DNA from: an uncultured bacterium
GTDB lineage: Bacteria > Patescibacteriota > Minisyncoccia > Phycocordibacterales > UBA11359
Reading direction: 5' to 3'
Assembly: GCA_903831815.1 (NCBI GenBank)
Contig: CAIKZC010000002.1
Coordinates: forward strand, 7,244-71,243
DNA length: 64,000 nt
Made by a program: the position numbers and the translations under genes. The first letter of the stretch is position 1. Every line of letters begins with the position of its first letter. Positions 1-62,451 of this stretch are shown piece by piece. The notes under the pieces were generated by a model. It worked only from the letters and a program-made list of their open reading frames with translations. It did no database searches and had not been told where the DNA came from.

Positions 1-551
1 TTGCTTTGGTTAAACAAGGTTAACGCTTCGTTACCATCTCCGAAATCACTTGAAGAAATGTTCGCTAAACTATTATTCAAAATGATGGCTGTACCTTTTA
101 GATCATCGGCCACTAAATGGTCAATTTGTAAATTTTCTCCATTAGCAAAAATTGCTTGATTAGAACCTTTCAAATTCATGTGAGAAAGTGTCGATGTCCC
201 GTGGCTAAAATAGATATTCCAGTCATCATTTTCCGTGTTAGAAGAAAAATAGACCGGCAAATTTTCAGTACCGTTTACATTCAAACTGCCCAAAACCGTC
301 ATTGACCCTTTTGCGCCAGAATCATCATTAGCAAATTTAATTTCAACTCCTGGGTCTACCGACAAAGTAGCTCCTTCATATATGACCATGCCGCCTCGCA
401 CTACATACGGACTATTCACCAAATCCAAAGTAAGATTTGTGGATATTTCAGCAGGAATATTAGTATCCGCGAAAGTGACCGTTACACTAAAAAATAAACT
501 TACTAGTAAAAAGCTGATAAATACGATACCTGCATAAAATAATTTTTTCAT
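1..551 (-). CDS. secreted surface protein with beta-helix-like Gly/Asn/Ser-rich repeats; start codon inside window, C-terminus beyond the window edge (partial)
   Basis: ATG at 551..549. The frame stays open down to position 1. N-terminal signal peptide MKKLFYAGIVFISFLLVSLFFSVTVTFA. Repetitive G/N/S/T-rich beta-strand-like segments. Absent from the ORF track because it is truncated by the window edge. Confidence 0.5.
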   Translation of the reverse strand, partial: MKKLFYAGIVFISFLLVSLFFSVTVTFADTNIPAEISTNLTLDLVNSPYVVRGGMVIYEGATLSVDPGVEIKFANDDSGAKGSMTVLGSLNVNGTENLPVYFSSNTENDDWNIYFSHGTSTLSHMNLKGSNQAIFANGENLQIDHLVADDLKGTAIILNNSLANISSSDFGDGNEALTLFNQS

Positions 552-576
552 GCAGAAATCATAAACAAGCACCCCT

Positions 577-613
577 AAAATATTTATAAAAAAATATTAA
601 AGAAATTCTAAAA
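577..613 (-). promoter_or_regulatory. shared AT-rich promoter-like motif, copy 1, upstream of the 1..551 gene
   Basis: TAAAATATTTATAAAAAAATATTAAAGAAATTCTAAA, near-identical to copy 2 at 13306..13341. Read on the gene sense strand it contains TTTAGAATTTC...TTTTTTTATAAATATTTTA, a -10-like TATAAAT box, about 25-60 nt before the ATG. Confidence 0.45.
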
Positions 614-856
614 ATTTTCTAAAGAAAAAATAAAGCAGCCATATGCTATCTTTAGAAAGATTTTATTTCTCGTTCATTAGTATTTTCTACAGAATTTCAG
701 AATATTATTATCGCGCTGCCACCGAAGCGTCGATACTATCTTGATAATATCCGGAAAAGGCCATTATGGCGAAACTCACGCTTATAATAAGTATGAAACC
801 AATCGCGAACCTAAAAAAAGTTTTGTCGAAAAGGTCTAACATGAAATAATTATAAC

Positions 857-6073: not shown

Positions 6074-6301
6074 ATTAGTGTTTTAAATGTCTTATATAGA
6101 TTACGTGTCCTTTACTTACCTGTCCTATAACATTTCCACCTGTCTTTTAAAATAAATTAGAACGAATTTATGTCCATTATAGTATAGGACAAAGTTGAGC
6201 GTCAATATATACAAATTTGATAAATGTGCTCTTGATAGGGCACACTATCTTAAGATAAGATAAAATCTTTCTTGAGGTCTTTATGGAAATTTTAATATTT
6301 C

Positions 6302-6327
6302 TTTAGAATTTTTTTATAAATATTTTA
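6302..6327 (+). promoter_or_regulatory. shared AT-rich promoter-like motif, copy 3 (shorter), upstream of ftsK
   Basis: TTTAGAATTTTTTTATAAATATTTTA 57 nt before the ftsK ATG. Same gene-relative orientation as copies 1 and 2. Confidence 0.4.
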
Positions 6328-6383
6328 TCCCCTCTAGTATATGTTTATTATGTCCTCGTATGATATTATTACTCTAAACACAT

Positions 6384-8636
6384 ATGAGCAAACGAAATAA
6401 ATCATCAAAAGAAAATGACAATGAGGCTATGAGTCACCTCAAAGAAAAGACTCTCCATGCAATCGTAGCAGTCACACTCTTTGTTATCGCAATCTACTTT
6501 GTTCTTTCCGCAATCAGTCTGGCCGGTCGAGCTGGCATTGATACGTATATCATCTTCTCTCAACTTTTTGGTGTCGGATATTATCTCATACCTATCGTTC
6601 TTATTATTCTAGGTATCTCGTTCTTTAGATCAGCTCAGCAGAAGATCGCCATGTGGCAATCGATCGGTGGGCTAGTCTTGTTCTTGTCCGGACTCGGTAT
6701 CATCTCGACTATCTCTTTTATGATCTCAAAGGATCTAAGTCTTGTCGGCGGTGTTGTCGGCTACTATGTTTCTTTGCCGCTCATTAAAATATTTTATGTG
6801 TATTTCACCTTAGTATTTCTGTTAGCACTGGTTCTCATATCAATACTAGTAATCTTTGACGTGCACCTCGCCGATTTGATCTGGTGGCGTAAAGATGAAG
6901 ACGAAGAAAATGAAAAGAAAGATGCTAAAGGAGTTTCAGCCGACCTTGATGCAGCGGAACTCAAAAAAATGGATGAGGCTCGCAAAGCCAGTGACAAAAA
7001 TACCGCTAATAATGACGATAAACAAAAACTCAAAGACGCGACCGACACCAAGAACAAACAGGACGAGTTTACTTTATCAATGCCAGCGCATATCGGGAGA
7101 GTTAGCCATAATGAATTCGTGCCACTCCCCCTCTCTCTCCTTGAAGGCGATAAAGGCAAACCGGGAGTCGGAGACATCAAGGCCAATGCCAACATTATTA
7201 AGCGCACACTTCAAAACTTCGGTATCTCAGTTGAAATGGATGAAGTTTCGATCGGACCTTCTATCACTCGCTATGCCCTGAAACCTGCCGAGGGTGTAAA
7301 ACTTTCTCGCATCGTCGCTTTACACAACGACCTCGCTCTCGCTCTCGCCGCTCACCCGATCCGTATCGAAGCACCTATCCCCGGTAAATCGCTCGTCGGT
7401 ATTGAAATTCCAAATAGTGTCAAAACAACAGTCGGTCTTGCCAATCTTATCGGTGATCCGGAATATCAGAATTCCAACAAGCCGCTCCTTGTCACTTTAG
7501 GTAAAGGTATTTCTGGAAAGTCCTATTTTGCCAACCTTGGCAAAATGCCTCACCTTCTTATCGCCGGCGCCACCGGTTCCGGTAAGTCCGTGACCATTCA
7601 CGCCATCATCACCTCTCTGCTTTATCGCAACACGCCAGAAAATCTCAAATTCATCATGATTGACCCAAAGCGTGTTGAACTCACGCTTTACAACAAAATC
7701 CCTCATCTACTCACTCCGGTCGTGACTGAAGCCAAAAAAGCTATCCTGGCACTCAAATGGGCGGCAAAAGAAATGGATAGACGTTACGATATTCTGGAAT
7801 CAGAATCCGTGCGAGACATTGAGTCATATCATAAAAATATTCTGGCTCCAGCCGTTAAAAAACTTGATGATGAGGAAAGGGCCGAGCTCGAAGCCGCAGG
7901 CAAAATACCGGAAACCCTTCCATATATTGTCATTGTCATCGATGAATTGGCCGATATCATGCAAGCCTATCCCCGCGAGTTGGAATCTGCCATTGTTCGC
8001 CTCGCTCAGATGTCCCGCGCTGTTGGTATTCACCTCATCGTTTCAACCCAACGTCCTTCAGTCAACGTCATTACCGGTCTTATTAAAGCCAACATCCCTG
8101 CCCGCATTGCCCTCCAGGTGTCATCTCAGATCGATTCTCGTACGATTTTGGATGCATCGGGTGCAGAAAAATTGCTCGGCGCTGGCGATATGCTCTTCCA
8201 GTCTGGCGATATGTCTCAACCAAACCGTATTCAATCTGCCTTTATTTCCGAAACTGAGCTCAAAAATGTCGTAAAATTCCTCGTTGAAAACAATGATGCA
8301 ATCCCAGAAGCTGGTATCGATCTCAGCAACACCCAACCACAAGAAAAGAATTCGATTTTTGACGCGGTCAATAACGCAGATGAATTTGGAGACGATGACG
8401 ATGATTTATATGAGCAAGCTCGAGAAGAGATAATTCACGCCGGCAAAGCTTCAACTTCATATCTTCAAAGAAAACTACGTATCGGTTATGCTCGTGCCGC
8501 TCGCCTCATGGATATGATGGAAGAGCGTGGAGTAATCGGTGCAGCCGACGGTTCACGACCTCGCGATGTGATTGCCGACAAACCTAGCGAAACAACAGGT
8601 GCGGAGAGTACAGAAAATCTGCCACCTGCGGCCTAA
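6384..8636 (+). CDS. ftsK: DNA translocase FtsK/SpoIIIE
   Basis: N-terminal multi-TM region, linker, Walker A LLIAGATGSGKS, Walker B VIVIDELAD. C-terminal gamma wHTH TSYLQRKLRIGYARAARLMDMMEERGVIG. Confidence 0.9.
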   Translation: MSKRNKSSKENDNEAMSHLKEKTLHAIVAVTLFVIAIYFVLSAISLAGRAGIDTYIIFSQLFGVGYYLIPIVLIILGISFFRSAQQKIAMWQSIGGLVLFLSGLGIISTISFMISKDLSLVGGVVGYYVSLPLIKIFYVYFTLVFLLALVLISILVIFDVHLADLIWWRKDEDEENEKKDAKGVSADLDAAELKKMDEARKASDKNTANNDDKQKLKDATDTKNKQDEFTLSMPAHIGRVSHNEFVPLPLSLLEGDKGKPGVGDIKANANIIKRTLQNFGISVEMDEVSIGPSITRYALKPAEGVKLSRIVALHNDLALALAAHPIRIEAPIPGKSLVGIEIPNSVKTTVGLANLIGDPEYQNSNKPLLVTLGKGISGKSYFANLGKMPHLLIAGATGSGKSVTIHAIITSLLYRNTPENLKFIMIDPKRVELTLYNKIPHLLTPVVTEAKKAILALKWAAKEMDRRYDILESESVRDIESYHKNILAPAVKKLDDEERAELEAAGKIPETLPYIVIVIDELADIMQAYPRELESAIVRLAQMSRAVGIHLIVSTQRPSVNVITGLIKANIPARIALQVSSQIDSRTILDASGAEKLLGAGDMLFQSGDMSQPNRIQSAFISETELKNVVKFLVENNDAIPEAGIDLSNTQPQEKNSIFDAVNNADEFGDDDDDLYEQAREEIIHAGKASTSYLQRKLRIGYARAARLMDMMEERGVIGAADGSRPRDVIADKPSETTGAESTENLPPAA

Positions 8637-8640
8637 CATC

Positions 8641-9084
8641 ATGACGGCTTCCCAAAAACTCATTCTTAAAATTTCAATAGTCATCATAACCCTATTGCTC
8701 ATTTTGGGTTATGGACTATTTCAGGCTCGCAACCTCATAAACGGACCGGAAATCAGCGTTTCAACGCCAAAAAATGGCGAGAACCTATCTAACCCTCTCA
8801 TTGTGGTGGCCGGTTCAGCAAACAACATCACTCACATTAGTCTCAACGATCGACAGATCTTTGTTGACAAACAAGGCAATTTCTCGGAGAAATTGCTGGT
8901 GCCTTCCGGCTATACTATAATTAAGCTAGAGGCACAGGATAAATTTGGCCGAAGCACAAAAAAGCTTATCGAGCTAAATTACACTGCTCCGCAGGCAAGT
9001 AGTACGTTAATCGGTAATGCAAGTACAACTGGCATGACCGCAACAAGTACCGTAGCCACAAGCACACAGAAGATTATTCAGTAA
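8641..9084 (+). CDS. membrane-anchored hypothetical protein with an Ig-like extracellular domain
   Basis: Start taken at MTASQKL immediately after the ftsK stop; the ORF-track start at 8572 overlaps ftsK. One TM helix [21 protein letters not shown]. Ser/Thr-rich C-terminus. Confidence 0.45.
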
Positions 9085-9095
9085 TTACAAAATTT

Positions 9096-10139
9096 ATGGC
9101 AAAATTTGGAAAAGAAAAAGCTCCCCCAAAAGAAAGTAACGCAAGCATTAAAGATACGTTGGACGCGATTCGCACAAAGTTCGGTGATGAGTCTATTATG
9201 ATGCTTGGCGAAAAACCAAGAGTTGATATCAACGCCATCTCTACCGGTTCAATTGGACTAGATGCCGCACTTGGTGTTGGCGGACTCCCCCGCGGTCGTA
9301 TCATCGAAATTTTTGGACCAGAGTCATCTGGTAAAACAACTTTGGCTTTGCATGTCATCGCCGAAGCCCAGAAAAAAGGTGGTATCTGCGCCTTTATTGA
9401 TGCTGAGCATGCTATGGATCCTGTTTACGCCGGAAACTTAGGCGTAAAAATTGGAGAATTACTTTTGTCACAACCAGATACAGGTGAACAAGGTTTAGAG
9501 ATTTGTGAATCATTAGTCCGTAGCGGCAAGCTTGACGTGATTGTTATCGACTCTGTCGCAGCGCTGACTCCAAAGGATGAAATTGAAGGAGATATGGGTG
9601 CACAGCACGTCGGCAAGCAAGCTCGACTTATGTCGCAAGCTTTGCGTAAATTGACCGCTATTGTCGCCCGCTCAAAAACTATTGTTATCTTCATCAACCA
9701 GATTCGTATGCAAATTGGTGTGATGTTCGGTAATCCGGAAACAACTCCTGGCGGAAAGGCTCTCAAGTTTTACACTTCCGTTCGTTTGGATATCCGTCGC
9801 ATCGCTCAAATTAAAAAAGGTGAAGAAGTTGTGGGTGGACGTTGCCGCGTGAAGGTTGTAAAGAACAAAGTCGCTGCCCCATTCCGTCAGACCGAATTTG
9901 ATTTGATTTACAACGAAGGTATTTCCAAGGAAGGTGAAATTATCGCCCTCGGTGAGAAAATGGGCTTGATTAAAAAAACTGGTATCAGTTATGCCTATGG
10001 TGATGAGAAATTGGGACGAGGCTATGATGCTACTCGTACGTTTTTGAAAGAAAATACCAAAGTTTCGGACAAGATTCTGAAAGAGATTCGTGAACAACTG
10101 GCTAAAGGAGATGTGAAAATGGAAAGTGGTGGAGAGTAA
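9096..10139 (+). CDS. recA: recombinase RecA
   Basis: [12 protein letters not shown] Walker A. Full-length match to the RecA pattern ([14 protein letters not shown]..., [10 protein letters not shown]..., [11 protein letters not shown]...). Confidence 0.95.
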
Positions 10140-10150
10140 ATAAATCGCTA

Positions 10151-10247
10151 CAAACAGGCAGTCCTGAGGGCACAGGTAAATTTCCTGCTGGAAATTTCCT
10201 TCACACTCGCGCCGTCGCGCTCCGTGAGTCCCTCAGGACTGCCTGTT
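10151..10247 (+). repeat. structured palindromic repeat element, copy A (about 100 nt; 68-nt conserved core with two internal hairpins; outer 19-bp stem)
   Basis: AAACAGGCAGTCCTGAGGG-[core GGGCACAGGTAAATTTCCTGCTGGAAATTTCCTTCACACTCGCGCCGTCGCGCTCCGTGAGTCCCTC]-AGGACTGCCTGTTT then TTTCGCTTT. Lies 12 nt after the recA stop, same orientation as recA. Four related copies elsewhere in the window. Confidence 0.8.
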
Positions 10248-10585
10248 TTTCGCTTTACCTCCTCTTCACTTGCATTTGCGAATCATCTGAGTAGTATGAT
10301 AAACAGAAATGATTGTTCTAATACCCTCTAACCTTGGGAGACTTATCCATGAGAACTTCAGTGTGGCCCGATTGGTTTCATCATCACGGAACCAAAGTCC
10401 GCGTCAAAGACGGATGCTCTCCAAATCTACTCATTCTGGAAAGTAGCGCCGGAAGTCTGGTGATACGGCGAAAGAGCGACAACAAATGGACTGTGGACTG
10501 GTAAGTCAGCCAATCCGAGGAAACAGGTGAATTTTCGACCGGAAGACGAATCTTCACGTCAGATGAACTTCGGATTGCCTTTGGA

Positions 10586-11914: not shown

Positions 11915-12010
11915 GAGAGTGCCTATGCAGGGACTCACGGAGCGCGACTGGCGCGAGTGTGAAGGCAATTTTCAGCAGAAAATTGACCTGTGCCCTGCAT
12001 AGGCACTCTT
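11915..12010 (-). repeat. structured palindromic repeat element, copy B (reverse orientation, downstream of rpsR)
   Basis: Outer 17-bp perfect stem AGAGTGCCTATGCAGGG / CCCTGCATAGGCACTCT. Core is about 90% identical to copy A. Hairpin 1 is changed to CAATTTTC-TGCT-GAAAATTG, compensatory relative to A's AAATTTCC-TGCT-GGAAATTT. Confidence 0.8.
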
Positions 12011-12028
12011 GGTAGCAAAAGTAATACA

Positions 12029-12057
12029 CAAAAAAACCACCGAGCGGTGGTTTTTTT
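12029..12057 (-). terminator. bidirectional rho-independent terminator downstream of rpsR
   Basis: AAAAAAACCACCG-AGC-GGTGGTTTTTTT. Confidence 0.7.
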
Positions 12058-12070
12058 GTTAATTCGCAAA

Positions 12071-12271
12071 TTATCGAACCACAAACGGCATCAAGCCCAA
12101 GAATCTCGCCCGCTTCAAAGCATTAGCGAGTTGTCGCTGATGATTGGCTGAAACACCCGTACGCTTGCGCGCAATAAGACGACCATGTGGGTTAACAAAT
12201 TTCTTGATAACCTCAATGTCCTTGTAATCAATATATGCAACTTTGTTTTGTGATAGGAAATTTTGCTTCAT
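12071..12271 (-). CDS. rpsR: 30S ribosomal protein S18
   Basis: 66 aa. ...YIDYKDIEVIKKFVNPHGRLIARKRTGVSANHQRQLANALKRARFLGLMPF is the bS18 signature. Confidence 0.9.
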   Translation of the reverse strand: MKQNFLSQNKVAYIDYKDIEVIKKFVNPHGRLIARKRTGVSANHQRQLANALKRARFLGLMPFVVR

Positions 12272-12276
12272 AAAGT

Positions 12277-12765
12277 TTAAAATGGAATATCTTCTGCGTT
12301 AATTTCTTCTTCTGGATACTCGATCGCACCCCCTACATCCGCCCCTGCGTCCTTGGCAGCACCTGCTGCACCTTTGCCCCCCTTTTCTGTCTTACTTGCT
12401 GGGGCTCCCGTACTTGCTCCTACCGCACCACCTTCTCGACGAGGACCAAACTGGACTCTGTCAGCCACGATTTCCGTGCGATACTTCTTTTCGCCTGATG
12501 TTTTGTCATCCCAAGAACGTGTTTGCATGCGACCTTCAACCAAAACTGATGCTCCTTTTTTCAAATATTGTGCTGCGGTTTCTGCTTGGCGACCAAATAC
12601 TACGACGTTGTGATAATCTGTACTCTCCTGCTTTGCTCCGTTCTTGTCTTTCCAAACTCGATTGGTAGCAACAGCGAAACTTGTGACTTGAATCCCCGAA
12701 GGCAAAGCCTTCATTTCTGGGTCTCGTGTTAAGTTTCCGATGACGATTGCTTTGTTAAAATACAT
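12277..12765 (-). CDS. ssb: single-stranded DNA-binding protein
   Basis: OB-fold MYFNKAIVIGNLTRDPEMKALPSGIQVTSFAVATNRVWKDKNG... Gly-rich linker. Acidic tail ending DIPF. Confidence 0.9.
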   Translation of the reverse strand: MYFNKAIVIGNLTRDPEMKALPSGIQVTSFAVATNRVWKDKNGAKQESTDYHNVVVFGRQAETAAQYLKKGASVLVEGRMQTRSWDDKTSGEKKYRTEIVADRVQFGPRREGGAVGASTGAPASKTEKGGKGAAGAAKDAGADVGGAIEYPEEEINAEDIPF

Positions 12766-12774
12766 ACGATTTGA

Positions 12775-13248
12775 TTAAGCAACAGTTAGATCGCTGACAG
12801 TCTTGTCGATAGACTTATCCATATCTTCTGTTGAAACTGGATGTTTTGCACCGCCTTCTGCCATATTTTTGTCAGAAGTTTCGATATCCAATTTGCTCGA
12901 GAGCAAAGTATGCTCACGAACAGTGTTAATAAGGAGGAGGCGTAAGATAGACTCGACTTCTTTCACCTCTTTTTCAATGAGACGCACCTCGACAGGAGCG
13001 GCTTCAAACTTGATCCAACCAAAATAGGCGCTGTCGAAACGTCGGTTTACTGTCCCGATTTTTTTAACCATAGTATAAGCCAAAGAACGAAGTGATGCTG
13101 TCTCGTCAGACAAAACTGTCGCTTTATGCTTGCTGAGAACGTCCTTTATAGTACTAATTTCCGCAGCAATTTTTTCTGCTGGAATTGAAGGCACTATTAA
13201 ATAGCCAATCTCATATACTTTTACGTCTCGTTCCGCTGTTTTTTCCAT
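12775..13248 (-). CDS. rpsF: 30S ribosomal protein S6 (with C-terminal extension)
   Basis: First gene of the conserved rpsF-ssb-rpsR arrangement. N-terminal 100 aa fit the bS6 fold pattern (YEIGYLIVPSIPAEK...). Confidence 0.75.
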   Translation of the reverse strand: MEKTAERDVKVYEIGYLIVPSIPAEKIAAEISTIKDVLSKHKATVLSDETASLRSLAYTMVKKIGTVNRRFDSAYFGWIKFEAAPVEVRLIEKEVKEVESILRLLLINTVREHTLLSSKLDIETSDKNMAEGGAKHPVSTEDMDKSIDKTVSDLTVA

Positions 13249-13305
13249 AAATTACAGCCTATCACAGGCCTTTTGGTTATGCAATAGTTATAGCAAATTA
13301 GGGTT

Positions 13306-13341
13306 AAAATATTTATAAAAAAATTATAAAGAAATTCTAAA
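13306..13341 (-). promoter_or_regulatory. shared AT-rich promoter-like motif, copy 2, upstream of rpsF-ssb-rpsR
   Basis: TAAAATATTTATAAAAAAATTATAAAGAAATTCTAAA, 34/37 identical to copy 1. 58 nt upstream of the rpsF ATG. Overlaps the 3' end of tatD. Confidence 0.5.
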
Positions 13342-20054: not shown

Positions 20055-20089
20055 GAATAATATTATACCACAGGAGTAAACTCGCGCTT

Positions 20090-20698: not shown

Positions 20699-23600
20699 CT
20701 AAACTTTTTTGAGTTGTACTGTAAGGTGAAGGTCTTCGGCGACCACGGGGGTGCCGGTCGTGTTTTGAACGAAGGACGGCGCACTGACCAAATTTACTTT
20801 TTTAACAAGTTCATCATTATATTTTTTAATAAAAGCCACCGTCATATCATCACCGGAAAATTCCATCGATGCCTTATCTTGCGGATTAAATTCCATCTCT
20901 TTACGAACCTCTTGAATAGCGCGCATGAGCTCGCGCAATTTCCCCTCTTCGATAAGTTCCGGTGTCATTTTAACATCAACAAGAACCGTAACATCGTTTG
21001 CCGTCATGCTTTCGTTATTTTTTTCTTTCAATCCTAAACTTCGCTTAACCAATTTTACGTTCAATTCCTCGGCAATGATCGACTCAAATTCCGGAGAAAG
21101 CATATTTTCCGCATCATATTCAATTCCAGCAAGCGGTTGACGAACTTTTTTGCCTTCTTTGGCTCTAAAAGCCAATCCAACTTCAACGATTTTTCGCACG
21201 GTGTTCATGTCGGTCAAAATTTTGACATCATAATTCTCACAAACCGGCCAAACACGTAAATGAACACTTTCAGCATCTGTTTCATTTTTAACTTTCTGGT
21301 AGATATCTTCGGCAATAAAAGGCATAAATGGTGCGATCAAAATTGAAAATTCAAACAAAACATATCGCATAGTAGCCAAGGCAGCCTCTTTGTCCGCAGC
21401 ATCGTCGCCTTTGAAACGATCACGTGATCGACGCAAATACCAAACGGAAAAATCTTCAATGAAATCATCAATCGGACGCGCCGCTTTGTCTAGCATGTAA
21501 GCGCCAAGAGCGCCGGTAATAGTGTTACAAGTTTGAGATAATCGAGCTAAAATCCAGCGGTCTAAGACATTTTCACTATTTTTGTAAGCTGCAGAATTGT
21601 CGGCATAAAGTGCGTAAAAAGAATAAATATTATTCAAACGCATCAAAAGTTTTTTAACGACCTCATCAAGACCTTTTTCGGAAAAGAGCAGTTCTTCGGA
21701 TTTTACGGCCGGACTCGACATCAAATAATAACGTAGAGCGTCGGCGGAATATTTATCGACGGCTGGCATTATTTCGGGAAAATTTTTCAATCTCTTGGAC
21801 ATCTTTTTGCCGTCTTCTGCCAAGACCAAACCGTTCACTATCACATTTTTGTATGGCGACTCATTGAAAAGCGCCACACCTAAAACAATCAAAGTGTAAA
21901 ACCATCCACGAGTCTGGTCTAGTCCTTCACCAATAAAATCAGCCGGGAAATTTTTGTGTTTTTCGGCATCAAAAACCGTTTTTTCAAAAGGATAATGATT
22001 TTGCGCATATGGCATCGAACCGGAATCGTACCAAGTATCAAAAACATCCAAGACACGCGCAAATTTACCGCCACACTCACAAGGCCATGAAATATCATCG
22101 ATATAAGGTCGATGGAGGTCAAGCTCCAATTTTTCATTGCGAGGGATATGATAGAAATGATGTTGCTTTACTTCTCCCGGATGCAAATAATCTTCATCTT
22201 TGGTTGCCGAAATTGCCAATATTTGTTTGCGAGTAAGCCCTTGCGCACCCATTCGCATAAAGAAAAGCGGATCGTCGTGACTTACGATCAAAATATTTTT
22301 ACCCTCATTTTCCTTATCAATGCCTATCAAAAATTCAGTCACGCGATTTCTCACGTTTTCCACCGTCTCCCCACCATTTGGTGCTTTGATATAGCGTTCC
22401 TCTTTATTTTTAAACAATGCATGATATTCCGCGCAACTTTTGCCATCCATTTCACCAACGTTCAATTCGCGAATTCGTTTATCAAAAATGATTTTTTCAA
22501 TCGGAAACCCAATCGTTTCCGCCACGATCTCGGCCGTTTCTTTGGTCCGAACAAAATCAGAAGCGTAGATAATATCGATTTTTTTGCCTTTCAAACTTTT
22601 AGCCGATTTCGCCACGTCATCTCTACCTTTTTCGGTAAGATGATGTTGATTTTCAACTTTTGAACTCAAAATATTTTTAACATTATGCTCGCCTTCGCCG
22701 TGACGCATCAGGAAATAAGTATTCGAGCTTCTAACCTTTTGTTTGAGGTCGTCGATCGAACCGAGTACTTCGATCTTTTTACATTCCTTGCAACGCCAGA
22801 TCGGCATGGCTGTACCCCAATATCGCTGTCGTGAAATACCCCAATCTTTGGCGCCTTCCAGCCAATTTCCAAAGCGCGCTTCACCGACATAATCCGGCAC
22901 CCAATGAATTTTATTATTTTCCGCAACCAAACGCTTTTTGATTTCAGTCACTTTTACGAACCATGAAGAAGTCGCATAGTTGAGAAGCGGCGTATCACAT
23001 CGCCAACAATGGGGATATGAGTGAATTATTTTTTCTTTAGCAAAAAGATTGCCCTTACCGGCCAAATATTTGATGATCTCGATATCGGCTTTTTGATGAT
23101 CGCCTTTCGGTTTTACGTCCTGCCCAGCAAATTCAATGACTTCCTTTTTAAATTTTCCGTCGGCGCTGACATGTTGAACAAATGGAATTTTTTTCTCCTG
23201 TGACAATTGCAGATCATCCTCGCCAAAACCGGGCGCAATATGCACTACTCCCGTACCATCTTCGATCGTGACAAATTCGGCTTCGTATACATGCCAAGCA
23301 TTCTCTTTGTTCGGCAATTCAGTATCTTTGTAATATGGAAAAATCGGTTCGTATGATTTACCGACCAATTTTGTACCCTTAAATTCATCTTCAACGGTAT
23401 ATGCCGACTTTATCGTCGACAATCGATTTTTGGCCAGAATAAGTTTAATGGTTTTTTCTGGATTTTTCTCATCAACGATGGAGATTTGGACATAATCAAT
23501 CTTCGAATTTACAGCTAAAGCAAAGTTACCAGGCAATGTCCAAGGTGTCGTCGTCCAAGCCAGCAAAAAAGTGTCCGGTACAATCTCGTCTTTTTTATCC

Positions 23601-24295
23601 TTCAACTGAAACTTCACATAAACCGAAATATCGGTGATATCTTTGTAACCTTGGTTGACTTCAAAGTTGGAAAGCGTCGTGCCGCAATGCGGACAGAGAT
23701 GCACCGATTTATAACCTTCGTAAGCCAGATCTTTTTTGAAAAGCTCTTTGAACGACCACCAAACGGATTCCATATAGGTCGAATCCATGGTCATATAATA
23801 ATTGTCCATGTCCACAAAACGACCGAGACGCGGAATTATTTTTTTCCAATCGGCGTAATATCGCAAAACGCTTTCGCGTGCGGCTTTGTTAAATTTTTCG
23901 ATACCGTATTCCTCGATCTCTTTTTTATTCTTAAGCCCAAGTTCCTTTTCGATCAAATTTTCTATCGGCAAGCCATGACAATCCCAACCCCAACGACGAG
24001 TGACGTGATAACCTTGCATCGTTTTGAAACGTGGGATCACATCTTTCATTGTGCCGGAAAGGATATGACCATAGTGTGGCAAACCGGTCGCAAATGGTGG
24101 ACCATCGTAAAAAGTAAACTCACCTTTTGGCGCGTCTTTTTGCAAAGTTTTTTCAAAAATTTTGCTTTCATCCCAAAAAGCCAAAATCTCTTCCTCGCGA
24201 GCGGCTAATGCGCTTTTCAAAGGAACTTCTTTCGCCGGTTTAACGGATTCACTTCCCTTTTCTTTTTTAACTTTGTCTGTCGCCATATATTGAAA
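20699..24295 (-). CDS. ileS: isoleucyl-tRNA synthetase carrying an internal histidine-phosphatase (PGAM-like) domain insertion of about 200 aa
   Basis: HIGH PFATGLPHYGH, KMSKS KMSKRLKNFP, editing domain. The insertion lies between WGISRQRYWG and VLDVFDTWYDSG and carries RHGEGEHN and ILIVSHDDPLFFMR motifs. Start taken at MATDK (24295); the track ORF extends to 24367. Confidence 0.85.
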   Translation of the reverse strand, partial: FQYMATDKVKKEKGSESVKPAKEVPLKSALAAREEEILAFWDESKIFEKTLQKDAPKGEFTFYDGPPFATGLPHYGHILSGTMKDVIPRFKTMQGYHVTRRWGWDCHGLPIENLIEKELGLKNKKEIEEYGIEKFNKAARESVLRYYADWKKIIPRLGRFVDMDNYYMTMDSTYMESVWWSFKELFKKDLAYEGYKSVHLCPHCGTTLSNFEVNQGYKDITDISVYVKFQLKDKKDEIVPDTFLLAWTTTPWTLPGNFALAVNSKIDYVQISIVDEKNPEKTIKLILAKNRLSTIKSAYTVEDEFKGTKLVGKSYEPIFPYYKDTELPNKENAWHVYEAEFVTIEDGTGVVHIAPGFGEDDLQLSQEKKIPFVQHVSADGKFKKEVIEFAGQDVKPKGDHQKADIEIIKYLAGKGNLFAKEKIIHSYPHCWRCDTPLLNYATSSWFVKVTEIKKRLVAENNKIHWVPDYVGEARFGNWLEGAKDWGISRQRYWGTAMPIWRCKECKKIEVLGSIDDLKQKVRSSNTYFLMRHGEGEHNVKNILSSKVENQHHLTEKGRDDVAKSAKSLKGKKIDIIYASDFVRTKETAEIVAETIGFPIEKIIFDKRIRELNVGEMDGKSCAEYHALFKNKEERYIKAPNGGETVENVRNRVTEFLIGIDKENEGKNILIVSHDDPLFFMRMGAQGLTRKQILAISATKDEDYLHPGEVKQHHFYHIPRNEKLELDLHRPYIDDISWPCECGGKFARVLDVFDTWYDSGSMPYAQNHYPFEKTVFDAEKHKNFPADFIGEGLDQTRGWFYTLIVLGVALFNESPYKNVIVNGLVLAEDGKKMSKRLKNFPEIMPAVDKYSADALRYYLMSSPAVKSEELLFSEKGLDEVVKKLLMRLNNIYSFYALYADNSAAYKNSENVLDRWILARLSQTCNTITGALGAYMLDKAARPIDDFIEDFSVWYLRRSRDRFKGDDAADKEAALATMRYVLFEFSILIAPFMPFIAEDIYQKVKNETDAESVHLRVWPVCENYDVKILTDMNTVRKIVEVGLAFRAKEGKKVRQPLAGIEYDAENMLSPEFESIIAEELNVKLVKRSLGLKEKNNESMTANDVTVLVDVKMTPELIEEGKLRELMRAIQEVRKEMEFNPQDKASMEFSGDDMTVAFIKKYNDELVKKVNLVSAPSFVQNTTGTPVVAEDLHLTVQLKKV

Positions 24296-24382
24296 CATAC
24301 TAGCATTTTTCCTGATTTTATAAAAGAAAAGCCCGACGGTAAAGTAACCGAAGGGCTGGAATGCCACGAATGCGAAACATTA

Positions 24383-34770: not shown

Positions 34771-34884
34771 CGCGCATTCCTCCTGAAAAGAACTCCGTTT
34801 AAAATTCAAAACGATTGACGCTGACATTAATTAAACGTCCGCCAGATTACATTGTCAACGAATAAGTATTTAAAAAACAAAGTA

Positions 34885-34980
34885 AAAGAGCAGTTTTGAG
34901 GGACTCACGGAGCGCGACGGCGCGAGTGTGAAGGAAATTTCCAGCAGGAAATTTACCTGTGCCCTCAAAACTGCTCTTTT
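34885..34980 (-). repeat. structured palindromic repeat element, copy C (reverse orientation, 3' of rplK)
   Basis: Core identical to copy A over 68 nt. Outer 19-bp stem AAAAGAGCAGTTTTGAGGG / CCCTCAAAACTGCTCTTTT. T-run on the minus strand after the element. Confidence 0.8.
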
Positions 34981-35002
34981 ACTTTGCTTTCTACTCTTTT
35001 TA

Positions 35003-36030: not shown

Positions 36031-36058
36031 AATATTTTATCTTAAGATAGTGTTAAAC

Positions 36059-37150: not shown

Positions 37151-38317
37151 CTATTCAACGGTAGACGTTGTAGACGAACTAGAAGTACCTGTAGAAGTTG
37201 CTATTGATGTAGACACATCGCTATCAACTGGCATAATTACGGTTTTCTCTCCCGCTTCCAAAATTTTTCCTGCTTCACGAGCGGTATCTTCCGCTTGTTT
37301 TAAAAGCACAAAAGAATCGCCGTAGTCTTTGACATCGAGTTTTGCATTGCCTTGAGACAAGAGATCAGAAGCTTGTTGAAGTTTGATCTCGGCTTTGTTT
37401 ATGTATGTGCTTGTTGCAACATTAATTGTGGTCGTGCCGATGATGGTCGAAGTCGCTTCAGTCGAGCTAGAGATCAGAGGAGTTATGTAAGGCAATTCAA
37501 CGCCACCCAATTTTTCATCGGTTGTCGTTGCAGTGCTAGAGGTAGCCGAAGCAAGTGAGACTTGAACAGCGGAAATGGCATCCTGAGCGGCTTTTTGTTG
37601 GCTAAGCAAAACCTCAATAGACAAAGTCGTACTTGAATTTCGTGAATCGATACCGGCTCGGTCTAAAGAAAGAGCCGTGGCTTGAATACTGACTTTTGTC
37701 GCCAAATCTTGTACGGCATTGTTAACTGTTGCATTACCGTCTACCAATGTATCCAAAATAGCTTCGTGAACTTTTAATGAGGATTCGGCTTTGGAAGAAG
37801 TATCGACTGCAGCCGCGCTATTATTGTCGGTTTCTAGTTGTTTAACACTGTCCTTGATGACGGCCAAGTTGGAATCAATCTTGCTTTCAGCTTGAGCAGT
37901 TGTGGTAGCATCGAGTGTGCCGGCCATAGCCATAGTTTCCACTTCTTCAAGTCGACGAACCGCCAGCTCGGTGTGAAGCTGAGCTTTTGACTGAGGAGTG
38001 AAAGCGAACAATCCCAGAACATTTTCGTTGACGCTGGTCTTAACTTGATATAGAGGTTGTCCAGGAAGAGCTTTTTCGGCAGCGGTTGAAATGCCTCCAA
38101 TTAGAAGCACGGCCAAAAGCGCCATGGAAACGTATTGAGGTTTTACATACAAAGAAATATTTCGCCAATAGAACATCGGTGAATACGGCGAAAGAGTATC
38201 GCGTTCCGAATAGGCGATCTTAGAAAGCAATCGCGCTCGCATAGCCTCGCGCTCATCGAACGTTAATCCGATTTTTTGTCCTAAGTTATAAAGTTTTTCT
38301 TCAAATTTATTAATCAT
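37151..38317 (-). CDS. putative anti-sigma factor (cytoplasmic N-terminus, one TM, extracytoplasmic Ala/Ser/Thr-rich domain)
   Basis: Start overlaps the upstream ECF sigma gene by 4 nt. TM YVSMALLAVLLIGGISTAA. Confidence 0.45.
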   Translation of the reverse strand: MINKFEEKLYNLGQKIGLTFDEREAMRARLLSKIAYSERDTLSPYSPMFYWRNISLYVKPQYVSMALLAVLLIGGISTAAEKALPGQPLYQVKTSVNENVLGLFAFTPQSKAQLHTELAVRRLEEVETMAMAGTLDATTTAQAESKIDSNLAVIKDSVKQLETDNNSAAAVDTSSKAESSLKVHEAILDTLVDGNATVNNAVQDLATKVSIQATALSLDRAGIDSRNSSTTLSIEVLLSQQKAAQDAISAVQVSLASATSSTATTTDEKLGGVELPYITPLISSSTEATSTIIGTTTINVATSTYINKAEIKLQQASDLLSQGNAKLDVKDYGDSFVLLKQAEDTAREAGKILEAGEKTVIMPVDSDVSTSIATSTGTSSSSTTSTVE

Positions 38318-38814
38318 ATATGTAATATCTCCTGCAACATTTTGATTGCTCGATTGAGTTGGACTGAAACTGAATTTTCCGTACGTTTGACGATCTCTCC
38401 TATTTCCGACGGTGAAAGTCCTTCCACAAAACGCAATGTGACGACCTGTCGATATTTTTCCGGAAGCTTTGCGATCGCCTGACGAACTTTATCAATCTCC
38501 ATAAACTCCATGATTTTCCCTTCGTCGTCATCTTCTATATCAAAACCACTTTCTTGCATCATATCCAGCGAAACCATTTTCTTGCGACGATACTCGTCGA
38601 TGATCAAGTTGTTGGCTACCCGATAGACCAATGCGGTGGGATTTTTAATATCTGTGCCCCTGTCAAAATACTCCCAAACTTTCAAAAAAGCTTCTTGAGA
38701 AATCTCCAAGGCCCGTTCACGACTACTCAAACGAAAAAAGCAATGTCTGAATATCGCAGAGGAAAGCGTGTCATAAAGAGCTATAAAAGCTTGTTTTGTT
38801 TCCTCTTTGTCCAT
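38314..38814 (-). CDS. RNA polymerase sigma-70 factor, ECF subfamily
   Basis: Region 2 ...AFLKVWEYFDRGTDIKNPTALVYRVANNLIIDEYRRKK. Region 4 HTH LPEKYRQVVTLRFVEGLSPSEIGEIVKRTENSVSVQLNRAIKML. Confidence 0.85.
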   Translation of the reverse strand: MDKEETKQAFIALYDTLSSAIFRHCFFRLSSRERALEISQEAFLKVWEYFDRGTDIKNPTALVYRVANNLIIDEYRRKKMVSLDMMQESGFDIEDDDEGKIMEFMEIDKVRQAIAKLPEKYRQVVTLRFVEGLSPSEIGEIVKRTENSVSVQLNRAIKMLQEILHI

Positions 38815-44867: not shown

Positions 44868-44895
44868 GAAATAATAGCTGTAAAAAGAAAAAGTA

Positions 44896-44990
44896 AAAAG
44901 CAGTTTTGTGGGCACAGGTAAATTTCCTGCTGGAAATTTCCTTCACACTCGGCCCGTCGGCCTCCGTGAGTCCCTCAAAACTGCTTTTTA
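44896..44990 (+). repeat. structured palindromic repeat element, copy D (3' of nrdJ, between convergent genes)
   Basis: Core identical to A except hairpin 2 reads GGCC-CGTC-GGCC instead of GCGC-CGTC-GCGC, which is compensatory. Outer stem AAAAAGCAGTTTTGTGGG / CCCTCAAAACTGCTTTTT followed by a T-run. Confidence 0.8.
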
Positions 44991-44998
44991 CTTTTTCT

Positions 44999-45565: not shown

Positions 45566-45756
45566 GCAGAAAGTATACCATAAAGAACTTTGTGTCAGCG
45601 CATTTGTCTTTATCCAACACCTGTCAAGGAGAGATCGAAAAAGTTGTGCACTTCACTAAAATAAAAACATTGAAAAAGACTCAAACGGGGCTTAATGAAA
45701 GCTGTTTAGAACTTTATTCACTTGTTATTAACATCTTACTCACATAAAAAGACTTG

Positions 45757-47546: not shown

Positions 47547-47567
47547 ACCTATATTATACGCCTCTCG

Positions 47568-48137: not shown

Positions 48138-50900
48138 TTACACCGGTTTAGCAACAATAGGCTCAGGTTTTTTGGAATATTTTTCGGCAATGTCGGCTTC
48201 GATTTCGGCGCGGTCGCGACCAAATTTTAGGAATGAAAGTTCTTTGAGAGCATCAAGGTGATCTTTTGAATTTACTGGTGGTGGTAAAGTTTCAATATTG
48301 AATGGTTTAACCGGACGGCCATCAACCAACAATTTTACGTAAGCATTTCGATTGTCGATGTTCATGATATCGGCGGCGAGAAACGGTTCAAATTGTTTGG
48401 CTAAAAACTCGGCATCTTCGGCACCGGTTCTAAAGGCGGCAATGGAGCCGACGTTACCGAACACGGCGTCACGAATATTTTCTTCAAGTTGAGCGATAAA
48501 TTGATGAGCAACGGTCAGCGACAATTTATACTTACGAGCTTCTGAAAGAATTGTGGCAATCGAGTCGGTGGTGACGTTTTGGAACTCATCGATATACAAA
48601 TAAAACGGTGGCAAATTTTTATCAACTGAATCAACTCGCGAAAGTGCAGACATCAAGATCTTGCCAACTAAAATGAGACCAATCAAATTGGCATTAATAT
48701 CACCGAGTCTACCTTTAGCCAAATTAACCAATAATATTTTTTTACCATCCATAACCTCACGGAAATTGAACGATGATTTCTGCTGTGAAATGATCGGCCG
48801 CATAATGTCGTTAGAAAGAAATACATCAAACTTGCTAGTGATATAAGGCACAATGTTGGCCAGCGACGCTTCCCCACCGGCTTTATCAGCCACCTCTTTC
48901 CAAAACTGAACCACAATCGGATTTTTGCAATGCGAAAGTTTCATTTCGCGGAAAGGTTTGTTGGCCAAAACTTTGGAAACATCGAGTAACGTATTCCCCG
49001 TTTCCGGATCTTCCATGACAAGCAAGACAGCATTTCTAAAATATTGTTCGAACATCGGACCGCCAGCCACTTTCATATCAAACAATTTATTGAAAATACT
49101 GAGCATCTCGTTGACCACAAAAGTTTTTTGCTCCGGATGATTTATATCGTACTCAAGCATGTTGATGGCCATTGGCCGCGCACTTTGACTTGGATCAAAA
49201 TAAATAACATCTTCGTAACGCTCTTTTGGCACAGCCGCCAAGACATCCAAAATATCAATGCCATGAGGGTCAATCATACAAACTCCGGCGCCTTGCTGAA
49301 TATCCTGAATAATCATGTTTTTGAGCATGGTTGATTTACCTGTTCCGGTCTGTCCAATGACATACAAGTGACGCAAACGGTCCTCAGCGGTCATATAGAC
49401 CTTAGTTTCAACGTTGCGGTGTCTATTAACCCCCATGAGCGTTCCAGAAGTCGGCATACCAACCGGTGCCGGAGCAGAGCCGGATTTTGCCTGTCGCAAT
49501 TGCGGAGCAGCATTACCAGTCGTTTGAAAGTGCATCAGCGAAGCCAGTTCGTGAATGTTGAGAGGAATTGATTCATCTTCATCAAAAATTCTAAAAGAAA
49601 AATCATGCAAGACGGCGTTGGTGGCGGACGTTTTCACTCGTTTAAATTTCAAACCGTTACCGAGCGTATTGTTGAACTGATTAAATGTCGCCTCAATTTC
49701 AGCCAGGATTTTTTCGGCATCAATTTCCGTTTGACCGGAAACCACAATTTTAATTGAAACTTCGACGATTGGATTGGAAACTTTTTTGGTTACAAGCTCG
49801 ATAGCTTGATCATCCATTTTTAACGGTTCTTTTTTCTCTTCTTCGTCTTTCTTTTTTTCGGTTTTAGCAAAAACGTCTCTTAATCCTTTCCAAACTTCGC
49901 CACCTATTGAATCCGGAACGTCCAACGCATCTTTTGTTTTTACCCCTTTGTGGAGTTGTTTCAATGCACCGCTGTAAAGTTTTACATAATGATCATCAGC
50001 CGGCCTGACCATCACCTGCAAACTGGCGCCCTCACCTATTTTCTTAATCTTGGAAAAACTATTTAAAATAATATTAAGTGGATCGTATTCAAATTCTTCA
50101 TAAGTCTTGATTGGATAGATGGATTTACCAGAAGATACAGCATACGAAACAACCGATACACCGGCTTCATCAAAAACATTGTAGTCGCCTGAAACTTCAA
50201 TAATTTTGGCATTAGGGAAAATAGCCAAAAGTTGTTTTTCAAAAAGATCTTTTTTGACATCCGGTACGGAAACATAAAATATCGATTCTTCGCTGTGATT
50301 TGGATTGGCGATTTCCAGAGAAAAATAATTGTCCTCAGCATTTTTGCCACCAGCAATCGAAAGCATGCCGGCATAAAACTGTTCCATTGAACCGATAAAT
50401 TCTTTCAATGTTTTCTCTTCAGACTGTTTATCGCCTTTGGGTAGTGCAATTTCAAAAAGCGTCATGTGCAAAGCCTTATACAAAGTGCTTTTATCTTTCA
50501 AACCATCTAAAGGAAAACCCTGTTTCAAATATTGCACCAAAAAGCGATGAAAATCGTCATCAATATGAGGATCATTTAACTTTTCGATAACGGAAAGTGT
50601 GTTCCAGATCCCCTTCTCCTGAAGGAGACCCAGTAATTCGGCAATTTTTTCATCATGTTCCTCCGGCTCTAAATCAAGGACGATTTTCTCGATTTTTTTA
50701 TCCGAGAGCTGCATTTTAGGATGCAAAACTTCGTTGATTGGCTGTTTTTTATATTCCTCAACTGTTTTTTGAACCAAAGAATGCATCTCTTGTCGCGTTT
50801 CGGCCGTGCTGGCGTGTTCATAGACTTTGGCCCGCAAATATTCAAGTTCTTCTTCCGGAGTTTTAAATACCGGTATTTCGTTTGTTTGAAGTTTCTCCAT
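48138..50900 (-). CDS. 920-aa soluble protein with C-terminal VirD4/TraG/TrwB-type coupling-protein (T4CP-like) P-loop ATPase domain
   Basis: Walker A YVIGQTGTGKST. Walker-B-like FYLYIDEFQNV. TVAHQ...FRTG region parallels TrwB's VVAGLQS...FRS. No predicted TM helices. The N-terminal 480 aa are unrecognised. Confidence 0.55.
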   Translation of the reverse strand: MEKLQTNEIPVFKTPEEELEYLRAKVYEHASTAETRQEMHSLVQKTVEEYKKQPINEVLHPKMQLSDKKIEKIVLDLEPEEHDEKIAELLGLLQEKGIWNTLSVIEKLNDPHIDDDFHRFLVQYLKQGFPLDGLKDKSTLYKALHMTLFEIALPKGDKQSEEKTLKEFIGSMEQFYAGMLSIAGGKNAEDNYFSLEIANPNHSEESIFYVSVPDVKKDLFEKQLLAIFPNAKIIEVSGDYNVFDEAGVSVVSYAVSSGKSIYPIKTYEEFEYDPLNIILNSFSKIKKIGEGASLQVMVRPADDHYVKLYSGALKQLHKGVKTKDALDVPDSIGGEVWKGLRDVFAKTEKKKDEEEKKEPLKMDDQAIELVTKKVSNPIVEVSIKIVVSGQTEIDAEKILAEIEATFNQFNNTLGNGLKFKRVKTSATNAVLHDFSFRIFDEDESIPLNIHELASLMHFQTTGNAAPQLRQAKSGSAPAPVGMPTSGTLMGVNRHRNVETKVYMTAEDRLRHLYVIGQTGTGKSTMLKNMIIQDIQQGAGVCMIDPHGIDILDVLAAVPKERYEDVIYFDPSQSARPMAINMLEYDINHPEQKTFVVNEMLSIFNKLFDMKVAGGPMFEQYFRNAVLLVMEDPETGNTLLDVSKVLANKPFREMKLSHCKNPIVVQFWKEVADKAGGEASLANIVPYITSKFDVFLSNDIMRPIISQQKSSFNFREVMDGKKILLVNLAKGRLGDINANLIGLILVGKILMSALSRVDSVDKNLPPFYLYIDEFQNVTTDSIATILSEARKYKLSLTVAHQFIAQLEENIRDAVFGNVGSIAAFRTGAEDAEFLAKQFEPFLAADIMNIDNRNAYVKLLVDGRPVKPFNIETLPPPVNSKDHLDALKELSFLKFGRDRAEIEADIAEKYSKKPEPIVAKPV

Positions 50901-54712: not shown

Positions 54713-55234
54713 TTACACCATGGTCACCATGTTTTGCCAAGGCTTTACGAAACTTAAAAACCTTCGCTTTTCAAGCTTATCATGATGTATGAGGTAATGG
54801 CAATTGTGACAGAGCCAAACTAGATTTTTTATATTTAAATTTGAGTGATCTTGATCGATGTGATGCACAACAAGAATTCTTGAATCTACCTTGTGACAAA
54901 GTAAACATTCTGCTTTTAATCCGCTTTTTAACACTATTTTTCTATAAATCGTCTGCCCACCCTTCCAACCTAAATGTTTTTTGCCGCTATATTCAACATT
55001 CCTCCATTTAGTCTGACAAGATTTTCCACAAAAATATTTACCACTTTTAGAACGACTAATTTGCGACATTGTTTTATAAATAACTTTGTTACAAACATAA
55101 CAATTGGTCTCTTTTCTAGTTCTTGTACCAAACTTCTTACAATATCTTGAACAAAATATCCCCCACCCTATTTTTTCATGACTAGGTTTTACATAAAAAT
55201 CATTATTGCAAATTTTACATTTATGAATTGACAT
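54713..55234 (-). CDS. HNH endonuclease with N-terminal zinc-ribbon repeats (paralogue 1)
   Basis: Multiple CxxC pairs, then VVHHIDQDHSNLNIKNLVWLCHNCHYLIHH (HNH motif). Confidence 0.7.
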   Translation of the reverse strand: MSIHKCKICNNDFYVKPSHEKIGWGIFCSRYCKKFGTRTRKETNCYVCNKVIYKTMSQISRSKSGKYFCGKSCQTKWRNVEYSGKKHLGWKGGQTIYRKIVLKSGLKAECLLCHKVDSRILVVHHIDQDHSNLNIKNLVWLCHNCHYLIHHDKLEKRRFLSFVKPWQNMVTMV

Positions 55235-55757
55235 TTATTTTAATTTTACTATTAAATCTCGTTAGTTCAGAGGAATTATTATGAACAAGAAAATGGCAAT
55301 TGTGACAAAGCCAAGTTAAATTAGATAAAGAGTTATTCTCTCTATTTTTATCAATATGGTGAACCGACAAAATACGGGGATCTTTTTCTCCACACAATAT
55401 ACAAATAATCGCAGTATCAGCCCTTTTCAAAATATTTTTATATGAGAACTTACCATTTATCCAATTTGAGTGATTTTGTCCCCTATTTTTACCGCCAAGC
55501 CATTTATTGCTACAATTTACGCCACAAAAAAACTTTTTATTCTTTGAATTATTTATATCTTTATTTTTCTTATAGACTTTCTTACCGCAAACAAAACATT
55601 CAATAATTTTACCTTTCTTCCTACCTAGAATTTGACATTTAACTGAACAATAATGTTTTTTGGCAAGAAGAACTTGCGATCTTTTTCTTACAAAATATCG
55701 AGAACATATTTCACATCGAATAATCATTGTTCCATTATAACACAATGGATGACTCAC
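55221..55757 (-). CDS. HNH endonuclease with N-terminal zinc-ribbon repeats (paralogue 2)
   Basis: CxxC pairs, then SVHHIDKNRENNSLSNLTWLCHNCHFLVHN. Collinear with and similar to the downstream paralogue; overlaps it by 14 nt. Confidence 0.7.
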   Translation of the reverse strand: MSHPLCYNGTMIIRCEICSRYFVRKRSQVLLAKKHYCSVKCQILGRKKGKIIECFVCGKKVYKKNKDINNSKNKKFFCGVNCSNKWLGGKNRGQNHSNWINGKFSYKNILKRADTAIICILCGEKDPRILSVHHIDKNRENNSLSNLTWLCHNCHFLVHNNSSELTRFNSKIKINVNS

Positions 55758-58745: not shown

Positions 58746-58833
58746 AGGGTTACACTATCTTGAGATATCCTGCATACTACACCAAAAGTTGATTATTCTG
58801 AAATTATCGGTTAATGTATTGAGACATTTTAAT

Positions 58834-62421: not shown

Positions 62422-62451
62422 CAGAAAAAATATTTGTGATATAATTATCGC

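Follow-up and report, generated by a model that had tools for sequence, protein, structure and literature searches.

We asked why one AT-rich sequence stands upstream of three unrelated operons in the window (the whole stretch of 64,000 nucleotides analysed here, GC ~41%), and whether it reflects base composition or marks a particular kind of promoter. To our knowledge almost nothing is known about gene regulation in Patescibacteria (candidate phyla radiation), and we found no promoter class or regulon motif for them described in the literature. The exact 19-mer TTTTTTTATAAATATTTTA was present three times in the window, and shuffled sequences gave 0.32 matches to it with up to three mismatches allowed. 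The sequence TTTAGAATTT by itself was not enriched (19 matches vs 21.9 expected). When all three sites were aligned, 36-38 of 41 positions were identical and no gap was required. The recurrence of the motif far above chance was thereby confirmed.

The earlier note had placed the motif at 577-613 and 13306-13341. It is indeed present there, with the coordinates off by one, as the 37-mers occupy 576-612 and 13305-13341; they are identical at 35/37 positions and not at 34/37 as first counted. The copy upstream of ftsK had been described as a shorter version, but it is of full length over the same gapless alignment. It was misread because, at ftsK, the TTTAGAA unit and the T-tract are nearer to each other by one unit of 11 nt.

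Four to six units of 11 nt, every one beginning TTTA, make up the array at each site (Table 1), and Tandem Repeats Finder reported a period of 11. The pattern TTTA-N7-TTTA-N7-TTTA-N7-TTTA was found in the window only at the three sites (seven matches including shifted registers vs 0.02 expected). The array, hereafter the block, covers 45-60 bp and has the 37-mer as its core; its consensus reads ...TTTAnnAnTTC TTTAGAAYTTT TTTATAAAKAT TTTA WCYC, with units beginning (Y)TTTA. With a unit period of 11 bp, all units face the same side of the DNA helix. The upstream end of site 2, 18 nt at 13324-13341, doubles as the last codons and the stop codon (13324-13326) of tatD. All three blocks are read in the sense of the gene that follows, and their last A lies 25 nt from the ATG of the surface-protein gene, 57 nt from that of ftsK (6384) and 57 nt from that of rpsF (13246-13248), which agrees with the sense orientation and the 25-60 nt before the start codon given earlier.

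Table 1. Position and composition of the three blocks, their downstream hexamers and the genes that follow them in the window.
Feature	Position	Strand	Description
Site 1, block	576..634	-	six phased 11-nt units, TTTA starts 634, 623, 612, 601, 590, 579; last A 576
Site 1, ladder in the sense of the gene			TTTATTTTTTC / TTTAGAAAATT / TTTAGAATTTC / TTTAATATTTT / TTTATAAATAT / TTTA
Site 1, invariant 19-mer TTTTTTTATAAATATTTTA	576..594	-	internal TATAAA 583-588
Site 1, -35-like TTTAGA	607..612	-	outside the 19-mer
Site 1, downstream -10-like TATGAT	558..563	-	starts 13 nt past the block's last A; ends 6 nt before ATG 549-551
Site 1, secreted/surface-protein gene	1..551	-	N-terminal signal peptide; runs off the window
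Site 3, block (ftsK)	6280..6327	+	five phased units, TTTA at 6280, 6291, 6302, 6313, 6324
Site 3, ladder in the sense of the gene			TTTATGGAAAT / TTTAATATTTC / TTTAGAATTTT / TTTATAAATAT / TTTA
Site 3, invariant 19-mer	6309..6327	+	internal TATAAA 6315-6320
Site 3, -35-like TTTAAT	6291..6296	+	
Site 3, downstream -10-like TATGTT	6340..6345	+	TATGTT or TATGGT in ftsK orthologs
Site 3, transcription unit	6384..10139	+	ftsK 6384-8636; small Glucodextran_B-like ORF 8572-9084; recA 9096-10139
Site 2, block (rpsF)	13305..13341	-	four phased units, TTTA at 13341, 13330, 13319, 13308
Site 2, invariant 19-mer	13305..13323	-	internal TATAAA 13312-13317
Site 2, downstream extended -10-like TGcTATAAC	13287..13295	-	TGnTATAAC in relatives; TACAGT in L018
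Site 2, transcription unit	12071..13248	-	rpsF 12775-13248; ssb 12277-12765; rpsR 12071-12271

The surface protein, of which 183 aa fall within the window, had no Pfam match; its orthologs are ~700 aa long and contain LCAT and FIMAH domains (matching PF02450 and PF22888). The genes ftsK and recA and the small ORF between them are on one strand with tiny gaps, and their order is syntenic in relatives.

To follow the block outside the window we used relatives that were fetched by protein similarity and not by the motif, which makes this set unbiased for the motif; the loci were syntenic. S6, RecA, EF-P and L11 of the window had matches on metagenome contigs only. The close relatives are labelled Candidatus Taylorbacteria, and more distant relatives of FtsK and ComEC carry Parcubacteria, Paceibacteria or Patescibacteria labels. 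Upstream of rpsF and ftsK the block was kept in the relatives (L016-L022) with small changes, TATAAA to TATAAT and TATTTTA to GATTTTA or TTCTTTA. It was also kept at the site 1 ortholog of L119, where it scored 56.5 bits with a position weight matrix and was followed by TATGCT-N6-ATG. On the same 344 kb contig as the surface-protein ortholog, a block upstream of comEC (L116) was the sole matrix match in 21.5 kb, a stretch that also spans rpsL-rpsG-fusA, tuf, the S10 operon, rpmB, pilin genes, recJ and tpi-pgk. In relatives the block also precedes a PemK toxin gene. Matrix matches of 18 bits or more (185 kb) were all sense-oriented before an ORF, the only one inside a gene being the tatD tail at site 2. 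Over the ~250 kb scanned, no block was found inside genes, that tail aside, and none in antisense. The orientation, the fixed distance from gene starts and the conservation at orthologous sites bear out the earlier view that chance AT-richness is not the origin of the motif, and they support a cis element tied to promoters.

Further sites were collected by an exact-pattern scan of metagenome contigs, which gave 89 DNA stretches, ~15 of them with the GC content of the clade and the extended features. These sites were all sense-oriented and preceded the start codon by 24-57 nt (by 93-99 nt in the case of HigB). The genes that followed were two diverged type II/IV secretion ATPase genes, comEC, PemK, RelB, HigBA, murC and an N6/N4 DNA methylase gene, and the families identified for them were T2SSE ATPase (two lineages), ComEC, PemK, RelB, HigB, Mur ligase and N6/N4 methylase. 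A scan of the whole genome collection returned one relevant match, L014, which comes from a MAG labelled Saccharibacteria; it has the same sequence as L053 of the exact-pattern set, and its ATPase is only 47.5% identical to the other ATPase. A scan of viral contigs returned two matches, both due to chance. The core was near-identical between lineages whose proteins are only ~45% identical. The invariance of the core appears inflated overall, about half of the site collection having come from the exact-pattern scan. Conservation at positions left unconstrained by the pattern (22 sites) included a TTTA 11 nt upstream, a C before the next TTTA and WCYC past the last A. Conservation differed between the units and was nearly complete in the two promoter-proximal ones. 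A more distant relative, syntenic and with 43% ComEC identity, had no block at all, which indicates that the element is restricted to a clade and is not universal in the phylum. Within one Parcubacteria/Paceibacteria-type clade of ultra-small, uncultured Patescibacteria, the block marks a small, recurring set: the LCAT-like surface protein, ftsK-recA, rpsF-ssb-rpsR, comEC, type II/IV secretion ATPase, toxin-antitoxin, DNA methylase and murC genes.

The block was found at a minority of promoters, 3 of ~25 transcription units in the window. It was absent in the window at rplK, nusG, the tRNA genes and pilM/pilO, in L116 at rpsL-rpsG-fusA, tuf, S10, rpmB and the pilin genes, and in L119 at rplJ-rplL. 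Since the rpsL, tuf, S10, L10-L12 and L11 operons and the nusG and tRNA promoters all lack it, the block is not a generic strong promoter, and the general strong consensus promoter suggested earlier could not be maintained. Other promoters of the window with good -10 boxes were of the TGnTATAAT or TTGACA/TATAAT types and had neither T phasing nor a T-rich block.

Downstream of the block we found a second conserved feature. A TAnnnT hexamer 12-13 nt past the last A (register 13 or 14) was present at 15/16 sites and in 12/13 gene families, with a binomial P of ~6e-15 at a chance of ~5% per site. The 26-nt pattern also had 63 unrelated matches due to chance, and only 5 of these showed TAnnnT. Examples of the hexamer are TATGAT, TATGTT, TATACT, TAGAAT, TATAAT, TAACAT, TACTCT and TAAACT, often with TG before them. 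The exception was rpsF, whose TGcTATAAC ends in C where a T is usually essential. Eight families had the hexamer 6-7 nt from the start codon. Another 11 genes of the window, all without the block, showed the same TGnTATAAT-N6-7-ATG geometry, and a Shine-Dalgarno-like sequence was detected for 10/61 window genes; this suggests that leaderless mRNAs may be common in the organism. In two cases the block was displaced with its phase kept. The shift was exactly 22 nt in front of the surface-protein gene of L017 and 11 nt in L103, and both times the downstream hexamer was unmoved.

We consider it moderately probable that the block forms the upstream half of a two-part promoter, to which it would recruit RNA polymerase in a manner dependent on helical phase, either via an activator or by direct contacts. 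The -10 element would be the TAnnnT hexamer, often TG-extended and often weak, 12-13 bp past the block's last A. With this hexamer mostly 6-7 nt before the start codon, the predicted transcript would be leaderless or short-leadered, as at many other genes of the genome. Counted from the predicted start, the block would span about -25 to -65, at site 1 as far as -83, and stand in for a -35 hexamer, recruiting or positioning RNA polymerase on what would otherwise be a poor -10-only promoter. The fixed register, the leaderless geometry and the shifts that keep the phase make the downstream hexamer the simplest candidate for the operative -10. The TATAAAT box inside the block, which the earlier note had read as the -10, is probably not operative, given the separate hexamer at leaderless distance.

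As to how the block would act, the selectivity, the tight sequence constraint and the weak -10 hexamers together suggest a sequence-specific reader over mere curvature. The likelier route would be an activator bound head to tail on the direct repeats, following the logic of pho/PhoP boxes; a direct contact of the alpha C-terminal domain or of sigma region 4 with curved T-tract DNA would be the alternative. The pho/PhoP boxes of the OmpR/PhoB family are direct repeats with an 11-bp period that replace the -35 hexamer, end ~10-12 bp upstream of an often weak -10 and define a regulon. The block resembles these boxes by its 11-bp direct repeats, by taking the place of the -35 and by ending ~12 bp before the -10. 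It differs in that the array is four to six units long and in the unequal conservation of the units, which is not what equal half-sites would predict and counts against the activator-repeat reading. Nor did the 64 kb window and the fetched loci yield a cognate winged-helix regulator gene, or a gene for any response regulator or other evident transcription factor. We know of no consensus that the unit sequence (TTTAGAA, TTTATAA) fits. A shared regulator-binding site, the other option of the earlier note, would account for the data no less well than a strong promoter.

We rated the block as a putative lineage-specific, phased promoter module that replaces the -35. As a compact and portable element of ~60 bp it could help to predict regulons from metagenome-assembled genomes and to identify the regulator, and genetic tools might employ it as a regulated promoter. 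Should it be only a variant of a strong promoter, it would be a modest addition to the catalogue of lineage-specific promoter styles.

The block could also be a complete promoter alone, because it holds an internal TATAAA/TATAAT with TT(T/G)A 18 bp upstream. This alternative, which follows the earlier note and which we regard as possible though rather improbable, describes a self-contained sigma-70-type promoter with a -35 TTTAnA (-36 to -31), an 18-bp T-rich spacer and a -10 TATAAA, from which transcription would start at the last A. In that case the TAnnnT further downstream might be either another promoter in tandem or a pause element dependent on sigma. The internal hexamer alternates with a perfect TATAAT in rpsF orthologs, but at most sites, including all three of the window, TATAAA lacks the consensus final T, and in some orthologs the hexamer is TAAAAA or CATAAA. 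The -35 slot is TTGATA in the ftsK ortholog of L016, and TTTA is conserved there at 19/22 sites though it was not demanded by the search pattern. The -35-like element of the block is TTTAGA or TTTAAT, with 3-4/6 matches to TTGACA at 18-bp spacing. The block ends exactly 7 nt past the hexamer, on an A. The sites were not called by a simple consensus scan, and a promoter complete in itself leaves unexplained both the fixed 12-13 nt register of TAnnnT with its leaderless distance from the start codon and the 11- and 22-nt shifts of the block past an unmoved hexamer. Both starts, at the end of the block and at the downstream hexamer, could be usable.

A striking likeness to the promoters of Campylobacter jejuni speaks for the self-contained promoter as well. 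In a passage of PMC3824568, which cites Wosten 1998 and Petersen 2003, the C. jejuni RpoD promoters are described with a -35 region TTTAAGTnTT, a -16 region TTTTTTTG, a -10 TATAAT and a T every 10-11 bp. Measured against that passage, the block shares with Campylobacter jejuni/Helicobacter RpoD promoters a T-rich -16 region abutting a TATAAT-like box and T-stretches every 10-11 bp upstream, and TTTAAGTnTT may be compared with TTTAGAATTT of the block. Unlike the style outlined there, in which periodic T is a genome-wide trait of promoters, the block belongs to a minority class and has a second -10-like hexamer at a fixed distance downstream.

A further question is whether the block is the operator of one trans-acting regulator. 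Such a regulon would couple DNA uptake and processing (comEC, pilus/secretion ATPase, ssb, recA, ftsK, DNA methylase) with surface-protein, cell-wall and toxin-antitoxin genes, a proposal that we regard as doubtful at present. If true, it would give the first example of a cis-regulatory code that governs competence or host-contact responses in Patescibacteria. The comEC, secretion/pilus ATPase, ssb, recA, ftsK and DNA methylase genes recall the competence or DNA-damage regulons of other bacteria. The block is lacking at pilM/pilO in the window and at the pilin genes of relatives. As ~13 families are involved, half of them from the pattern search, a competence-type regulon is a lead and not a result. 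TfoX is a competence regulator in Gammaproteobacteria. A 104-aa protein with a TfoX_N domain is encoded ~4 kb upstream of comEC in one clade member (ENA ERZ1426827), which may offer a lead towards such a regulon. Cultivated Saccharibacteria have been shown to be naturally competent by way of ComEC, and their genetics builds on this (PMC10633639).

We also compared the block with an accessory that needs no factor, such as a generic UP element, suggested in the earlier note, or DNA with intrinsic curvature, either of which would raise the output of highly expressed genes without regulatory specificity. UP elements span about -38 to -59, precede a -35 hexamer and are typical of very highly expressed operons. 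The block is like an rRNA-type UP element in being A/T-rich, helically periodic and upstream of a core promoter, where it could contact alpha C-terminal domains, and phased T-tracts bend DNA. A promoter survey of 49 species, including one CPR species, reported canonical elements and periodic A/T tracts in UP regions, with a period of ~10 bp across bacteria (PMC12641261), and one of the operons served encodes ribosomal proteins. The block is, unlike an UP element, nearer to the -10, its best-conserved part falling at -25 to -43 relative to the downstream -10, and it replaces a -35 hexamer rather than standing upstream of one. Its conservation is far tighter than bending or binding of the alpha C-terminal domain needs. 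Among ribosomal and translation-factor operons it occurs only at rpsF-ssb-rpsR, and it is missing at every classic high-expression promoter examined (rpsL, tuf, S10, rpmB, rplJ-rplL, rplK, nusG, tRNA genes). We therefore judged an UP element or curvature effect to be unlikely.

That the block is a dispersed repeat without a function of its own, whether a DNA uptake sequence or a promoter cassette that is mobile or was duplicated recently (MITE or REP-like), is highly improbable: three near-identical copies within 13 kb and mobile-type gene neighbours (toxin-antitoxin modules, methylase) might hint at it, but copies have stayed at orthologous positions between genomes of 78-86% protein identity whose intergenic DNA on either side has diverged, no terminal inverted repeats, target duplications or similarity beyond ~45 nt were found, orientation and distance relative to genes are strict, and three copies in 64 kb with none inside genes are unlike uptake sequences.

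Several known elements were tried and rejected. Rfam at the gathering score returned only tRNAs, and around site 2 nothing credible was found with E up to 10. A palindromic operator of the LexA/Xre type was dismissed, as only AAATATTT is palindromic and the AAAGATTT variant, which is frequent, breaks that symmetry. ComK-type AAAA-N5-TTTT boxes, sigma-28 and ECF-type promoters gave no match on inspection; an ECF sigma gene is present at 38314-38814, yet the motif has no G/C-containing ECF-like elements. We also rejected the idea that the genes behind the block specifically lack a Shine-Dalgarno sequence, because 51/61 window genes lack one anyway.

The leaders behind two of the blocks had features of their own. 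The rpsF leader (13249-13286, -) and the ftsK leader (6346-6383, +) were almost invariant among relatives with 78-86% protein identity, and better conserved than the block itself. The former holds the hairpin GGCCTGTGATAGGCT, the latter TGATATTAT and a short upstream ORF. No Rfam match was found for either leader, and their folding was not significantly better than that of shuffles. A near-palindromic 16-mer, CACTATCTTAAGATAA (core TATCTTAAGATA), was found upstream of ftsK (6243-6258, +), directly before nusG (36037-36052, -) and, with two mismatches, before an acylphosphatase gene (58753-58768, +). These three matches compare with 0.03 expected, and the 16-mer resembles the operator of a dimeric regulator.

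Good -10 boxes, often TGnTATAAT, were located 6-10 nt before the start codon of at least 12 genes in the window (for example 20055-20075, 45566-45585, 47547-47565 and 62430-62451). Directly past a terminator at 859-888, an ORF at 708-842 (-) encodes a predicted membrane peptide of 44 aa, MLDLFDKTFFRFAIGFILIISVSFAIMAFSGYYQDSIDASVAAR. It has TGTTATAAT 6 nt before its ATG, and this leaderless geometry is conserved in L119 (4808-4939).

A structured repeat of ~107 nt was present at 10147-10253 (+), 44888-44995 (+), 34871-34993 (-) and about 11950-12035 (-). It lies just 3' of the last gene in four operons (recA, ribonucleotide reductase, rplK, rpsR), always on the sense strand and followed by a T-run. 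The predicted fold is a long outer stem around two hairpins (-60.3 kcal/mol, z = -10), with compensatory changes between the copies. The repeat had no Rfam match and is a candidate for a complex terminator, a 3'-UTR element or a REP-like repeat.

Four protein-coding loci of the window were recorded in addition. The isoleucyl-tRNA synthetase-like protein of 1222 aa (20699-24367, -) has a His_Phos_1 domain inserted in the middle of its catalytic domain, and its relatives are alike. The locus at 37151-38814 (-) encodes an ECF-type sigma factor of 166 aa and, after it, a DUF5667 protein that may be an anti-sigma factor and a protein with a SIMPL domain. A 920-aa protein (48138-50900, -) combines HerA and TraG/VirD4-type coupling-protein domains, which fits the type IV secretion-like systems reported in Patescibacteria. 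Two adjacent paralogous ORFs of 173 and 178 aa (54713-55757, -) share a repeat of ~48 nt (54779-54826 and 55275-55322), and one of them showed weak similarity to the RNA-guided endonuclease IscB (E = 1.7e-4).
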